Shown here: positions 1 through 4,203 of the stretch, in pieces
Position numbering within the stretch: position 1 is the stretch's first letter
Layout of the letters: every line of letters starts with the position of its first letter
Assembly (NCBI GenBank): GCA_002433895.1
Contig: DJJA01000003.1
Coordinates: forward strand, 376,881 to 440,880
DNA from: Candidatus Gottesmanbacteria bacterium UBA6580
GTDB lineage: Bacteria > Patescibacteriota > Microgenomatia > UBA10105 > UBA927
DNA length: 64,000 nucleotides
Reading direction: 5' to 3'
The notes under the pieces: generated by a model
Told to the model about the DNA's origin: nothing
The model's input: the letters and a program-made list of their open reading frames with translations, nothing else
The model's database searches: none
Translations under genes and position numbers: made by a program

Positions 1-2417
1 CAAAAAGCCCAGACTTTACCGCCCCTCTTAACGTAACTCTTGAGATGGAAACGGGTACGGGTAAGACTTACGTTTACCTCCGCTCCATTTTAGAGCTATA
101 TCAAAAATATGGACTATCTAAGTTTATTATCGTCGTCCCTACGGTAGCCATTAAAGAGGGCGTTATGAAGTCCCTAGCTATCACTAAAGACCATTTTAAG
201 GGTCTGTATAACAACTTGTCCTATGAGTACTACGAGTATGTATCTACTAAGCTAATGACCGTCCGAATGTTTGCGCAGTCCTCTCACCTGCAAATTATGG
301 TCATTACAAAAGACGCTTTTAATAAAGATAAAAATATCATCCATAACAACCATGACCGCATGGGAGATAAACCAATTTCTCTTATCCAAAAGACTAACCC
401 TATCGTTATCTTAGACGAACCACAGAAGATGGGTGGAGAGGCTACCCAATGGGGCATAAAAGAGCTTAACCCCCTCATAGTACTTAGATACTCTGCTACG
501 CATAGAGATATTGAAAATCTGGTTTACAAGCTTACCCCTTTTGACGCCTATGCCAAAGGTCTAGTTAAAAAAATAGAACTAGCGACCGTTGTAGAGGAAA
601 GCGACCCAAATACCAAAAAGATTATTCTGGAGAATATCTACTCCTCTGGAAGTAGCCTAAAAGCCAAAATAAAGGTGTTCATAAAGCAAGCAACATCCGT
701 GCAACTCAAAACTATTACTGTTGGCTCTGGTGATAACTTAGCTACTAAATCAAAAAATCCATATTACGACGGCTTTACCGTCTCCGAGATTAACTTAGGT
801 AATAACTACATTCTTTTTTCTAATGGTCTAAAGGTGTATGTGGGTCAATCCTCTGTAAATGAGGATGAAATAGTACGCATGATGGTACGTGAGATAGTTT
901 TAGAACACTTGGAAAAAAAGCGAAAGTTTAACCCACTTGGGATTAAGACCCTCTCTCTTTTCTTCATCCACCGTGTAGACGACTACCTACCAGTAGACGG
1001 GTGGCTCCGCAAAATGTTTGAGGAAGAGTACCAGAAAGCTACCAATGCCGACTACCAAGAGTTTAAGACCGCAAGAGTTGACAAGGTACACTCTGGGTAC
1101 TTCTCAGAGATGAAAAAAACCTCCTCAATAGAAAATGACGAGAAAGCCTACGAGCTGATTATGAAAGATAAGGAAAAATTGCTCTCCTTAGATAATCCCG
1201 TGGAGTTTATCTTTTCCCATTCTGCCCTACGTGAGGGATGGGACAACCCCAATATCTTTAATATCTGTACCTTAGCTTACTCAACCTCTGATATTAAAAA
1301 AAGACAGGAAATCGGACGAGGCTTGCGTCTAGTGGTAAACCAGCAAGGAGACCGCATATACGACCGAGATATAAACGTACTTACCGTAGTTACCAACGAA
1401 AGCTACCAAAATTATGTATCTGAATTGCAGACCGAGTTTAGAGATGAGGCAGGAGAAAGCGCCCCACCTGTAGAGCATAAGAAAAAACGAGTTAGCCTAA
1501 CCCTAAAAGATGACGCATTAGCTAACAAGAGCTTCCAGAGCCTTTGGAAGTTACTAGCAAAGCGGGCTAAGTTTGTTGTCTCTATGCAAGAAGAGGAAAT
1601 AATAAGTAAGTGTGTAGATGAAATTAACAAAATTGACGAAAGTAATATCCGAGAAATTCGGGTACGCATTACTAAAACAGGAATAGACACACTTCTACTT
1701 GATGATATTAGAGGCAACATCGTAAGCGACCGAAGCTACGAAATCGGAGCCTCTAAACAGCTACCTAACATTATTGCCCTCCTCCAAGCCGATACTAAGC
1801 TCACCAAGAAAACCCTATTAGCCATACTCCAAAGGGTAAATAATTTTGACCTGTTTTTCAAAAACTCCTACCAGTATGCAAGCCTCGTTTCCTACGCCAT
1901 TAAAACCGTCATATCAGACCTAGCCTCTAAAGGTATTAGCTATGTAGAGATTAGCGACAATTACGGATTATCGCTTTTTAATAAAGAAGTCCAGACTTAC
2001 GAAAAGTATTTAGTAAAGCTAGAGAGCGCCAAGACCCTCTATAAAACAGCAAATAACGGACAAGTGGACGCAGTCATTATTGACCCCAGCCCGTCCGTAG
2101 AGGGTGTATCACAGCCAGAGAAAAGGTTTGCCGAGAACGCAGACCGCAACGATACGGTTAAGTTTTTCTTTAAGCTCCCAGACACCTACTCTATCGCAAC
2201 TCCCGCAGGGCAATATACACCAGACTGGGCGGTAGTAGTTGAAAATGGCGACCATAACCAAGTCTATTTTGTAGCAGAAACTAAGGATACTAATATCATT
2301 AGTAGTCTCCGCCAAGAGGAGCAGATAAAAATACTCTCTGCACGAGCTATGTTTAAGGAAGTCATGCCAGAGGTCATTTTCAAAGCTCCCGTAAGCGAGT
2401 TTAGCGACCTTGCATGA
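1..2417 (+). CDS. res: Type III restriction endonuclease Res subunit (helicase plus C-terminal PD-ExK nuclease); 5'-truncated at window edge, frame open to nt 3
   Basis: Walker A TGTGKT, DEPQ box, helicase motif QEIGRGLRL, C-terminal PDWAVVVE...VYFVAETKD nuclease motif; no stop upstream of first Met. Confidence 0.75.
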   Translation, partial: KSPDFTAPLNVTLEMETGTGKTYVYLRSILELYQKYGLSKFIIVVPTVAIKEGVMKSLAITKDHFKGLYNNLSYEYYEYVSTKLMTVRMFAQSSHLQIMVITKDAFNKDKNIIHNNHDRMGDKPISLIQKTNPIVILDEPQKMGGEATQWGIKELNPLIVLRYSATHRDIENLVYKLTPFDAYAKGLVKKIELATVVEESDPNTKKIILENIYSSGSSLKAKIKVFIKQATSVQLKTITVGSGDNLATKSKNPYYDGFTVSEINLGNNYILFSNGLKVYVGQSSVNEDEIVRMMVREIVLEHLEKKRKFNPLGIKTLSLFFIHRVDDYLPVDGWLRKMFEEEYQKATNADYQEFKTARVDKVHSGYFSEMKKTSSIENDEKAYELIMKDKEKLLSLDNPVEFIFSHSALREGWDNPNIFNICTLAYSTSDIKKRQEIGRGLRLVVNQQGDRIYDRDINVLTVVTNESYQNYVSELQTEFRDEAGESAPPVEHKKKRVSLTLKDDALANKSFQSLWKLLAKRAKFVVSMQEEEIISKCVDEINKIDESNIREIRVRITKTGIDTLLLDDIRGNIVSDRSYEIGASKQLPNIIALLQADTKLTKKTLLAILQRVNNFDLFFKNSYQYASLVSYAIKTVISDLASKGISYVEISDNYGLSLFNKEVQTYEKYLVKLESAKTLYKTANNGQVDAVIIDPSPSVEGVSQPEKRFAENADRNDTVKFFFKLPDTYSIATPAGQYTPDWAVVVENGDHNQVYFVAETKDTNIISSLRQEEQIKILSARAMFKEVMPEVIFKAPVSEFSDLA

Positions 2418-2584
2418 TAAGCCAAAAAAGTACTGATAATCTGAAAAAGATATTTAAGGAGGAGTACAAAGCCGACTTAACAGACGAAGAGGCAAAGGAA
2501 GCAGGTCAAAAGTTGGTGGACTACTTTAGCCTTTTAATAGAGATTGATAAAAAGGCAAAAATTGTTAGGAAAAATGAAATATAA
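2414..2584 (+). CDS. Small hypothetical protein (56 aa), translationally coupled to res via ATGA overlap
   Basis: ATG overlaps the res TGA stop; continuous 56-codon frame ending 3 nt before the recombinase ATG; no homology recognised. Confidence 0.3.
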   Translation: MISQKSTDNLKKIFKEEYKADLTDEEAKEAGQKLVDYFSLLIEIDKKAKIVRKNEI

Positions 2585-2586
2585 AT

Positions 2587-4149
2587 ATGTATGAAGATAC
2601 AGAAGAAATTGACTTTACTAAACTCAAATACGTGCTGTATGCCCGCAAATCTACGGATGATAGCTCCCGCCAATTAAGGTCTATTGACGACCAAATAGCC
2701 GAATGTTTAGCCCTTGCAAGGAGGCTAAATCTTAATGTTTCTGAGCCAATCATTGAAACAAAATCAGCCAAAAAACCAAACCAACGCCCCTTATTCAAAC
2801 AAATCCTAAGCGATATTAGGAAAGGCGTCTATGACGGTATCTTAGCGTGGAACCCTGACCGACTAGCCAGAAATATGAAAGAGGGTGGCGAGGTAATAGA
2901 TATGATTGACGAGGGCTATATAAAAGACCTCAAGTTTGTCACTCATCATTTCACCAGCGACGCTAACGGAAAAATGCTACTGGGTATGGCTTTTGTGTTA
3001 TCAAAACAATACTCAGACGACCTTTCTCAGAAAGTCACCCGTGGAGTACGTAGAAGTTTTGCAGAGGGAAAATCACCCGCTCCAAAGCATGGATACATCA
3101 GAGACGAGGACGGGCTTTACAGACCCGACCCTGTAACCTTTCCTCTAATAGTTAAGGCTTGGGAAATGCGAGCAGAAGGAACGAGTATAGAAGAAATTGT
3201 TAAGTATCTAAACGATAGCGGATATAGGCGAATAATTAAAAGTTCTGGGCGCAAGGTAAAGATGACAAAACAAATCCTTAGCGACCTCTACAACGACCCT
3301 ATATACTATGGCGTTTTGATACAGGGAGGTAACGAGGTCAATTTAACCGAGCTTTACAACTTCCAACCCGCTATTGATACCTCAACTTATACCCAAGTGC
3401 AAAGCCTGAGTTACCGTAAAATTAAAGCTAATAAGCCTCATAAACTAGCTTTCTATCCATTACGAGCCATAGTTACTTGCTCGTTCTGTGGTGGAAATAT
3501 GTACGCAGGAGCCTCAACAAGTGGTAGTGGAAAGCGATACCTCAATTATAGATGTGATAACAAAAGCCGAGGGTGTAACAGACTGAAAAAATCCATACGA
3601 GCAAAGGTCATTTTTGATTTTATTTATAAATACCTAGAAAGTGGACTTAACTTTACGGAAGCTGACTATAACAACTACTACAAAGACCTAGAAAAAATTA
3701 CCAAAGAAAAACGAGAACAAGTAAAAATAAAAATCCACTCCAAGAGGAGCGTACTTTTAGACGCTAGGCGTGAGTTAAGAAATAGGGCTTTATCTCTTAC
3801 CGACCTAAATAACAAAATTAGTGACACAGCCAAAAAGGTAACAGAAGACCGCTTAGCTGAGTTAAAGGCGTTAGAAGAAACCCTAAGTGCAGAAATTACC
3901 GAGCTTGAAAAAACAATTAGAGACCCCGAAGCAGATAGACTGACCCTCCAACAATTCTTGAACTTGTCAAAAAATGCCTCTGTTATCGTCCAATCTGCCG
4001 ATGTGGTAGTGAAAGATGAGATATGCCGACTTATATTCTTGAACTTGACAGTTGATGAAGAGAAAGTGGCGTCATATCAACTAAAAGAGCCATTCGCTAC
4101 CCTCCTAAAACACCGCCAAATCGTATCTAGTCGGGGCGACACGATTTGA
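2587..4149 (+). CDS. Large serine recombinase / integrase (resolvase catalytic domain, recombinase domain, zinc ribbon)
   Basis: N-terminal YARKSTDD...SIDDQ catalytic-Ser motif; CSFCGG...YRCDNKSRGC zinc ribbon; C-terminal coiled coil; 3' end overlaps tRNA-Pro. Confidence 0.85.
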   Translation: MYEDTEEIDFTKLKYVLYARKSTDDSSRQLRSIDDQIAECLALARRLNLNVSEPIIETKSAKKPNQRPLFKQILSDIRKGVYDGILAWNPDRLARNMKEGGEVIDMIDEGYIKDLKFVTHHFTSDANGKMLLGMAFVLSKQYSDDLSQKVTRGVRRSFAEGKSPAPKHGYIRDEDGLYRPDPVTFPLIVKAWEMRAEGTSIEEIVKYLNDSGYRRIIKSSGRKVKMTKQILSDLYNDPIYYGVLIQGGNEVNLTELYNFQPAIDTSTYTQVQSLSYRKIKANKPHKLAFYPLRAIVTCSFCGGNMYAGASTSGSGKRYLNYRCDNKSRGCNRLKKSIRAKVIFDFIYKYLESGLNFTEADYNNYYKDLEKITKEKREQVKIKIHSKRSVLLDARRELRNRALSLTDLNNKISDTAKKVTEDRLAELKALEETLSAEITELEKTIRDPEADRLTLQQFLNLSKNASVIVQSADVVVKDEICRLIFLNLTVDEEKVASYQLKEPFATLLKHRQIVSSRGDTI

Positions 4150-4203
4150 ACGTGCGACCACACGACCCCCAGCCGTGTGCTCTACCAACTGAGCTACGCC
4201 CCG
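4131..4203 (-). tRNA. tRNA-Pro (anticodon GGG), no encoded CCA
   Basis: Reverse complement folds as cloverleaf: acceptor CGGGGCG/CGCCCCG, D arm GCTCAGTTGGTAGAGC, anticodon loop CUGGGGG, T arm GCACGTTCAAATCGTGT. Confidence 0.8.

Follow-up and report, generated by a model that had tools for sequence, protein, structure and literature searches.

What kind of event brings the gene of a large serine recombinase to an end inside a host tRNA gene? The question is raised by the left end of a 64,000-nucleotide (nt) stretch of DNA (the window, meaning here the whole stretch) from Candidatus Gottesmanbacteria (Microgenomates, Patescibacteria; candidate phyla radiation), the group to which its RecA assigns it. 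A type III restriction gene, a 56-residue open reading frame (ORF) and the gene of a large serine recombinase (LSR) follow one another there, and the last of them runs into the 3′ end of a tRNA-Pro gene. A preliminary description of the sequence placed these genes, the tRNA and the LSR stop codon within it (4147–4149), and all were found again at the same positions. We conclude that the region is very probably the right end of an 11,531-bp integrative island, whose own LSR inserted it at the tRNA-Pro 3′ end (attB) by way of an attP located within the LSR gene, which was split as a result. This reading rests on comparative sequence evidence for the anatomy of the island, its empty site, its transfer between hosts, its recurrence and the LSR-type geometry of its att sites.

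Boundaries of the island and its empty site

Coordinates are those of the window unless a locus is named, and negative numbers lie to the left of its position 1. L-numbers denote collected loci or contigs and P-numbers collected proteins; L002 is the locus that extends the window leftward, by way of contigs 100% identical to the window (exact-protein matches). The two genes that meet at the right boundary are these:

2587–4149, plus strand: LSR gene in its integrated form, 520 residues; Pfam Resolvase, Recombinase and Zn_ribbon_recom
4130–4203 (ARAGORN) or 4131–4203 (Rfam RF00005, 61.4 bits), minus strand: tRNA-Pro(GGG), the host target gene, intact, CCA not encoded

Measured from core to core, the island extends over 11,531 bp from L002 13 to 11544 (window −7401 to 4130), between the start codon of a SpoU methylase gene on the left and the 3′ end of tRNA-Pro on the right. 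The window holds its right-hand 4.1 kb. The preliminary description had seen a left side richer in AT, and a step in GC content is present: 39.7% for the whole element against 46.7% in the left and 47.6% in the right host flank, with local values of about 0.38–0.44 left of the tRNA and about 0.46–0.53 over the 4 kb to its right. Host genes continue beyond the left end (SpoU methylase on the minus strand, rpsI, rplM, rplQ, rpoA, rpsD, rpsK, rpsM, rpmJ and infA), and tRNA-Pro stands upstream of recA by synteny in most related genomes. The extended contig delimits both ends. The earlier proposal of an integrated mobile element with the 3′ end of tRNA-Pro as one boundary stands, and an empty tRNA-Pro site, which it had suggested looking for in related genomes, exists. 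In L006, whose RecA is 88% identical, only 9 nt separate the SpoU start codon from the 3′ end of tRNA-Pro, and nothing is inserted. The host flanks of the window align with L004 and L006 at about 67–74% identity (81% over one 405-nt stretch of L006), on the left side up to −7461/−7449; on the right side the alignment resumes at 4124 (L004) or at about 4400 (L006).

L004 (Gottesmanbacteria nzgw410), the closest relative with a RecA identity of 89%, was rejected as a second empty site: a 453-residue polytopic membrane-protein gene (L004 8355–9715, GC about 0.42) occupies the interval between SpoU and the tRNA, at the position of the element. It reads 20 nt into the tRNA and ends in CSRGDTI before its stop.

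The recombinase gene is split between the two ends of the island

The stop codon TGA of the LSR sits 19–20 nt inside the tRNA. Residues 1–516 are native; for G517-D-T-I520 and the stop, the coding sequence is the complement of the 3′ end of tRNA-Pro. The missing part of the gene is located at the opposite end of the island. Read in the LSR frame, which is set by the core, the plus strand of attL encodes a 47-residue tail, RQRAKNLELLTDTILTYWKPPTFDITKVILDEKYRYEGLGNGGFTYQY followed by a stop (L002 17–157, about 7.4 kb to the left of window position 1); the last 47 codons left at attL correspond to QRAKNLELLTDTILTYWKPPTFDITKVILDEKYRYEGLGNGGFTYQY. The tail begins at the core, 5 nt from the SpoU start codon. 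Joining window 2587–4133 to L002 17 onward gives a 563-residue ORF, which aligns end to end with two full-length homologs (residues 4–561 with 2–552 of P0086, and 6–554 with 3–551 of P0109).

Such full-length homologs are few. Four of the 119 with complete C-termini, P0086, P0091, P0109 and P0110 (552–558 residues), continue past the same junction with a homologous extension, as in P0086 (...GREEATNLEPLILSLLTHWDCTKFDEKLL...GFTY, then the stop). A hidden Markov model (HMM) trained on nothing but those four tails picks out the attL fragment of the island among 43,058 six-frame fragments (E = 0.0015), and it recognizes the attL regions of independent elements with E-values of 2.7e-15 (L111), 1.1e-10 (L090), 1.2e-9 (L088) and 7.9e-5 (L094). 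An intact attP, comprising the P arm, GTCG and the P′ arm, lies inside the full-length genes of L111 and L113. Ten tail ORFs were examined, at attL and at attP, and all ten run uninterrupted to a conserved Y-x-Y end; the tails of the window element and of L097 differ by nine synonymous and two nonsynonymous codons. The protein database contains at least 15 orphan tail ORFs, listed as "hypothetical proteins" of 41–91 residues; the tail-profile search that returned these 15 gave no further full-length forms, with a sensitivity probably limited by the word index. Comparison of these genes and gene fragments shows an attP that is, to all appearances, intragenic: integration would truncate the recombinase and exchange its last 47 residues for G-D-T-I from the tRNA complement. 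It is because attP lies within the gene that integration would split it.

At attL the SpoU methylase has been called 27 codons too long into element DNA (221 residues called; L102 10316–10981, corresponding to L002 1–88 and leftward), and the start that agrees with its orthologs, MNERRQQR, lies 5 nt from the att core. The LSR gene of P0111 (L084, about 2800–2910) has lost the att core to a deletion that also shifts the tail out of frame, and it may represent an immobilized copy or an assembly artifact. L085 carries a full-length family member of 560 residues (450–2132) with a divergent tail and an intact attP-like site at 1981, followed after 3.7 kb by a 604-residue LSR of another family (5805–7619), and the two may belong to nested or adjacent elements.

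Geometry of the attachment sites

Three segments make up attR, at the right end of the island:

4104–4129: P arm of attR, the element half-site, within LSR codons ..LLKHRQIVS; extent set by eye
4130–4133: crossover core GTCG, the complement of tRNA C71-G72-A73-C74
4134–4151: B′ arm of attR, the host half-site, formed by the 3′ strand of the tRNA acceptor and the T-arm; TTGAAC at 4146–4151 occupies positions 17–22 from the core G

The sequence of attR is ...CAAATCGTATCTA GTCG GGGCGACACGATTTGAAC..., and that of attL is CAT (the SpoU start) GTTTG GTCG CCAACGAGCGAAAAATCTTGAAC..., with the core at L002 13–16. GTCG is the only sequence common to the two. The same core is present in every other tRNA-Pro element examined, and a subclade at tRNA-Leu has GTGC. 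Serine integrases need only a central dinucleotide, and a core of only 4 nt fits an enzyme of this class for that reason. The P arm is identical in L095 and similar in other family members, and no attR or attP examined has anything between this arm and the core that follows it. From these half-sites the predicted attP junction is ..CAAATCGTATCTAGTCGCCAACGAGCGAAAAATCTTGAAC.. (as a longer stretch, CTAAAACACCGCCAAATCGTATCTAGTCGCCAACGAGCGAAAAATCTTGAACTG) and the predicted attB junction ..TTCATTCATGTTTGGTCGGGGCGACACGATTTGAAC.. (as a longer stretch, TCTGCGTTCATTCATGTTTGGTCGGGGCGACACGATTTGAACGTGCG).

The P′ arm in every element examined follows the pattern GTCG-N6-GCGA-N7-TTGAAC, exactly 27 nt, the exceptions being L115 (GCGC for GCGA) and the tRNA-Leu subclade with its GTGC core. 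Over 2.9 Mb of collected loci, a regular expression for this motif matches only predicted attL and attP sites, bar one doubtful match; L115 and L117 escaped it and were confirmed by visual inspection. The hexamer T[TC]GAAC occupies positions 17–22 in all B′ arms and positions 22–27 in all P′ arms, a shift of 5 bp that could be assessed in the right half-sites only. In the LI integrase, the motif for the zinc-ribbon domain likewise lies 5 bp further in for attB than for attP (Rutherford et al., PMC3783163). The shift gives the hexamer a double reading, the LSR stop in attR (aTT TGA, within the B′ TTGAAC) and Leu-Glu in attP (cTT GAA C).

The short-read contig of L098 ends (4610) exactly at the G of the GTCG core. 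Such an end is to be expected of a sample in which the P′ arm is joined to two or more different sequences, from other hosts or from a circular form.

The arrangement recurs across a recombinase family

Homologs of the LSR at 57–63% identity number in the hundreds, with 979 matches among 8,000 candidates scored, and the few with a source name all come from Microgenomates or Patescibacteria. Their C-termini carry the mark of the junction. Among the 119 that are complete, 83 stop exactly 3 residues past the junction R-G and 17 stop 15 residues past it (tails of the type ERTRTSDLCFPKAAL). T-loops with TTGAAC and TCGAAC, respectively, would be expected to give just these lengths. Lengths expected for reading into a tRNA are found in at least 100 of the 119. 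Truncated LSRs overlap tRNA-Pro (GGG, TGG or CGG) in L087–L093, L095/L096, L111 and L115. Seven further elements of 2.9–6.7 kb could be delimited at both ends and have the same anatomy:

L087 element, 2,903 bp, at tRNA-Pro(TGG)
L088 element, 4,870 bp, at tRNA-Pro(GGG)
L090 element, 5,012 bp, at tRNA-Pro(GGG)
L111 element A, 4,404 bp, at the intact attP of element B (tandem)
L111 element B, 3,586 bp, at tRNA-Pro(CGG)
L115 element, 6,536 bp, at tRNA-Pro(CGG)
L117 element, 6,715 bp, at tRNA-Leu(GAG)

The tandem pair of L111 (7116–15178) begins with attL at 7116; an intact attP at 11520 lies within a full-length LSR gene of 554 residues, and a truncated LSR of 510 residues that overlaps tRNA-Pro(CGG) follows. 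This suggests that attR can serve as a secondary target. In L117 (4808–11605), the LSR C-terminus at tRNA-Leu(GAG) reads ...SADERT before the stop, the core is GTGC, the P′ arm is changed to match, and the 5-bp offset of TTGAAC is the same. Judged by these predicted sites, the subclade is a retargeted one, moved from tRNA-Pro to tRNA-Leu.

An LSR of a different family (502 residues, 32% identical; L025 8295–9803) ends inside tRNA-Pro(GGG) (9789–9860) just upstream of recA in another Patescibacteria genome, and tRNA-Pro targeting may extend beyond the LSR family studied here.

Horizontal transfer and cargo turnover

In L095/L096, from a Microgenomates genome, an LSR 86% identical to that of the window occupies the same kind of site. 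The element ends and the mod-res-LSR block share 76–86.5% DNA identity with the window, whereas host genes in the same comparison (recA, rny and others) are only 65–69% identical, and the block of high identity ends at 4209, just beyond the tRNA. The middle cargo differs, L095/L096 having GmrSD and SLFN_AlbA_2 genes in this place. The left-end module, made up of the conserved 66-, 124- and 68-residue ORFs, is found with further, different cargo in L097–L101. The element of the window itself occurs, identical, in several samples. The comparison shows an element that has evidently moved horizontally between hosts.

From the left, the gene order of the island is the severed LSR tail, the three ORFs of the left-end module, five cargo ORFs, a helix-turn-helix (HTH) gene, mod, res, orf56 and the LSR. 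The cargo genes next to the LSR are these:

L002 5149–5358, outside the window, upstream of mod: excisionase-type HTH_17 gene, 69 residues
L002 5368–7221, outside the window, directly upstream of res: mod, type III methyltransferase; Pfam N6_N4_Mtase, PADLOC MTase_III 1.1e-150
1–2417, plus strand: res, type III restriction subunit, cut at its 5′ side by the window edge (frame 3 ORF 3–2417; codons 64–868 of 868, 805 in all); Pfam ResIII and RE_endonuc, PADLOC REase_III 4.6e-220 on the full gene
2414–2584, plus strand: orf56, 56 residues; its start overlaps the res stop (ATGA), and it ends just before the LSR start

The earlier pairing of a large serine recombinase with type III restriction-modification (R-M) cargo is borne out, down to the mod gene predicted upstream of res and now found there on the contig extension. 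With mod and res adjacent, the system is complete, and the predicted cargo function is type III restriction-modification, that is, defense. The ORFs of mod, res, orf56 and the LSR overlap or abut, and the LSR is seemingly co-transcribed with the other three. The product of orf56 has no Pfam, PHROG or PADLOC match, and its homologs occur only in close relatives that have the R-M system (L095/L096 and L101); being kept only there, it was set aside as a family-wide partner or directionality factor. Small excisionase-type HTH genes recur in several elements, and their products are candidate directionality factors.

The five cargo ORFs, of 295, 168, 253, 98 and 372 residues from the HTH gene leftward, have no informative family match except the last. 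The 372-residue protein (L002 1403–2521, minus strand) matches phrog_6203, whose function is not known (3.7e-30), and it is the sole uncharacterized cargo ORF with a family match.

Searches of the element ORFs against Pfam and PHROG gave no phage structural, replication or conjugation genes (capsid, terminase, portal, replication). None of the element's proteins matches Phage_integrase, the tyrosine integrase family; the sole recombinase is of the serine type. In IMG/VR, a single-protein search found no relatives of the LSR, the P′ motif of attP and attL was also absent, and a family-profile search found only relatives of at most 37% identity. The LSR is at most 28% identical to any LSR of deposited phages or plasmids. 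An origin as a phage, prophage or phage satellite was rejected on the IMG/VR, Pfam and PHROG results.

In L005, a close relative (1–9300, compared with window 6362–17387), the genes that stand right of recA in the window stand left of it in inverted order, with an inversion breakpoint near recA/tRNA-Pro. L006 (8837–9971) has a 100-residue GIY-YIG-like ORF and a Band_7 gene between tRNA-Pro and recA; the Band_7 gene of the window lies downstream of recA on the other strand (5514–6287).

The enzyme has the domains and predicted fold of a large serine recombinase

The Resolvase domain PF00239 covers residues 16–162 (7.8e-23), PF07508 reaches 30.7 bits against a cutoff of 21.1, and PF13408 30.2 bits against one of 25.3. 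The YARKST motif, the DRLxR residues and four cysteines are invariant in 77 family members. The fold and the coiled-coil hairpin were assessed not on the window protein itself but on P0109, a homolog with 57% identity to it. The AlphaFold model of P0109 (mean pLDDT, the per-residue confidence score, 81.8) presents the LSR fold with a coiled-coil hairpin and long paired helices (353–435), and its best Foldseek matches are the SPbeta integrase (3e-19), Bxb1 and the phiC31 integrase. A disordered linker (504–517) lies exactly where the att core is encoded. All LSR features open to testing were found, and the predicted enzyme is a large serine recombinase.

Alternative explanations

The preliminary description had proposed that the island carries a copy of the tRNA 3′ segment, rebuilds the 3′ end of the gene with it and leaves a displaced direct repeat of 19–45 nt as attL/attR. 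An element that abuts an intact tRNA gene, with a recombinase ORF overlapping the tRNA by 20 nt, would suit that model. The overlapping sequence, however, belongs to the host, as it is identical in element-free relatives (100% over the tRNA in L010), and at most the last 2–4 nt of the tRNA gene would be contributed by the element. Nor is there a repeat of the tRNA segment in the 10 kb to the left or elsewhere in the window by repeat search and blastn-short, where the best chance matches are of 11–13 nt. The far end has been located and shares only GTCG with the tRNA end, and a true left end beyond SpoU is excluded by the conserved ribosomal-protein synteny. We hold the rebuilt 3′ end to be extremely improbable. 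What had been called a classic footprint is 20 nt of host tRNA that replace the LSR's own C-terminus, and an unrelated ORF can show the same: the membrane-protein gene of L004 extends just as far (20 nt) into this tRNA and likewise has SRGDTI before its stop, the first stop of the tRNA complement in that frame being the TGA of the T-loop. For this reason an overlap of ORF and tRNA is by itself not diagnostic of integration. The L004 overlap has also to be set beside another possibility, that the LSR is a fixed remnant or a domesticated recombinase, for example an invertase or regulator of the adjacent R-M genes, whose overlap with the tRNA is incidental. The apparent co-transcription with mod-res-orf56 and the identity of the element in several samples could be accommodated by such a role. 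It is nevertheless quite improbable in view of the empty site in L006, the element identity of about 86% across hosts whose core genes are 65–69% identical, and relatives that swap their cargo and keep their ends. LSR, tail and cores are intact in many lineages, the same LSR family sits at tRNA-Pro with quite different cargo and without R-M, and no att-type inverted repeats were noted within the element. The absence of a repeat, taken as a ground for refutation, would have wrongly rejected a true element; it is a criterion that suits tyrosine and not serine integrases.

The short C-terminus ending in the tRNA could also be the natural one, with the tail ORF at the left end a remnant of an older, decayed tandem copy. 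Tandem arrays do exist (L111), and the short form accounts for the great majority of database homologs. Every attL examined, however, has its tail starting exactly at the core beside unrelated host sequence, with no LSR remnant upstream, and all tail ORFs are intact to the conserved Y-x-Y stop with differences that are mostly synonymous. Each tail is most like its own element's lineage, the P′ motif has the geometry of an attP half-site, and reconstitution keeps the reading frame and gives an ORF that matches full-length proteins from end to end. A relic of this kind is improbable. The reading of an LSR gene split by integration at its own attP has its own difficulties. The HMM match to the window's own tail is modest (E = 0.0015), this tail being more diverged than those of L088, L090 and L111. 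The full-length homologs come from tandem arrays or unresolved contexts (L085, L108–L110, L112 and L113) and not from demonstrated free circles; no contig that carries a full-length LSR has the terminal redundancy of a circle, and no read- or contig-level evidence points to an excised circle or to an empty attB in the same strain. Different hosts do not share a conserved left (B) arm of attB, an unusual situation among characterized LSRs, and no convincing mirror image of TTGAAC was found in the P and B arms. In the P0109 model the tail appears as a low-confidence helix, with most of its residues of low confidence; no docking site can be proposed, and the model lends no structural support to a role of the tail. 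These points weigh against the split-gene reading, which we still consider very probable.

Proposed mechanism

In our model, attP lies in the 3′ end of the LSR gene, and the LSR would recombine it with an attB made up of the tRNA-Pro 3′ end and a few bases downstream. Crossover would take place within GTCG (tRNA positions 71–74), and it is because it falls there that the tRNA would be left intact without a duplicated tRNA fragment. Codons 1–516 would remain at attR and continue into the tRNA complement (GDTI, with the stop inside the T-loop hexamer), and the last 47 codons would be stranded at attL beside the SpoU start codon. Excision would restore the 563-residue gene. The excised circle would then express the 563-residue enzyme, which would carry out integration. 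The integrated element would make only the 520-residue form, seemingly from a mod-res-orf56-LSR operon. As this is the only form that it can express, excision, if it occurs, must be the work of the 520-residue protein, perhaps with the HTH protein as directionality factor. All recognized domains are in one piece in the integrated form, which may well stay active, and the element is presumably still active. Persistence of the tRNA half-site in attR, together with a weak requirement for the B arm, would explain the tandem arrays.

One may speculate further that the 47-residue tail acts as a directionality switch built into the enzyme. Full-length protein, made only from the circle, would be competent for integration, and tail-less protein would be competent for excision, alone or with the HTH protein. 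We regard this as doubtful. If it were true, the make-up of the recombinase gene would tell the element whether it is integrated, and the element would not depend on a separate directionality factor alone.

Comparison with known systems

The serine integrases of phages and integrative conjugative elements (phiC31, Bxb1, A118/LI, SPbeta SprA and TP901-1) have the same domains (resolvase, recombinase, zinc ribbon and coiled-coil hairpin) and likewise a very short core, no long att repeats and a distal motif 5 bp closer to the center in attB than in attP. Unlike them, the island LSR, at most 28% identical in sequence, has its attP within its own gene, targets the 3′ end of a tRNA gene and differs in its C-terminus between the free and integrated states. 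The elements here are moreover tiny (2.9–11.5 kb), without phage or conjugation genes, and in Patescibacteria. In an earlier survey, 14 of 297 serine-integrase islands were at tRNA or tmRNA genes (Mageeney et al., PMC7192596), and serine integrases have been treated as not established in tRNA targeting, or such use as needing proof (PMC4383910; PMC7192596).

Small, cargo-carrying islands at tRNA genes, with a tRNA-proximal integrase gene and tandem arrays, are also known as Islander-type islands and tycheposons. Their defining features are a tyrosine integrase and a displaced fragment of the tRNA; neither is found here. The target of the myxophage Mx8 is also a tRNA gene 3′ end, and its IntP shares the intragenic attP with the island LSR. 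IntP is, however, a tyrosine recombinase, and the identical core that it has in common with the tRNA is long, whereas the island has a serine recombinase with a 4-nt core and another chemistry and directionality logic. SSV-type integrases have the recombination site in their own ORF and the gene split, as in the island; they are tyrosine recombinases of archaeal viruses and plasmids, split well inside the gene and inactivated, whereas the island LSR loses only the last 47 of 563 residues. In the mycobacteriophages BPs and Brujita, integration-dependent immunity relies on an intragenic attP: a phage protein loses its C-terminal part upon integration and thereby changes in its properties, which makes a switch that tells the integrated from the free state. 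The truncated gene is there that of the repressor and the integrase is a tyrosine recombinase; in the island it is the serine recombinase itself that is truncated. The location of the Mx8 attP in the 3′ part of intP is given after Tojo et al. (1996), in the passage of PMC4383910 that cites them, and that of the site inside the ORF of the "suicidal" SSV-type integrases, with the gene split to both element ends, after the corresponding passage of PMC7253208. Among tycheposons, 27 of 937 carry an LSR (bioRxiv 10.1101/2020.12.28.424599). By its predicted gene layout the island LSR resembles the Mx8 and SSV-type integrases; as a serine recombinase it is not a member of either group. In the literature we found the intragenic attP described only for tyrosine integrases; neither an LSR with this layout nor the present Patescibacteria LSR family was found described there. 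Coverage was incomplete, and a prior description is possible.

Implications

Serine integrases are widely used tools of genome engineering, and how their direction is controlled is under active structural study. In this family the C-terminus depends on integration, which makes for a natural experiment on directionality, with a 563- and a 520-residue protein to compare. The family also provides a well-delimited and recurrent use of tRNA genes by serine integrases, which earlier surveys had left unreported or unproven (PMC4383910; PMC7192596), and a change of target from tRNA-Pro to tRNA-Leu with matched changes in attP. If this retargeting by co-variation of core and P′ arm is true, it would constitute a natural series of reprogrammed serine integrases. 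For annotation, hundreds of database "recombinase family" proteins would be integration-truncated forms, with their tails listed as orphan hypothetical ORFs and neighbors such as SpoU over-extended. For the biology of Patescibacteria, whose mobile elements are poorly known, the island would represent a widespread type of very small, defense-carrying element.

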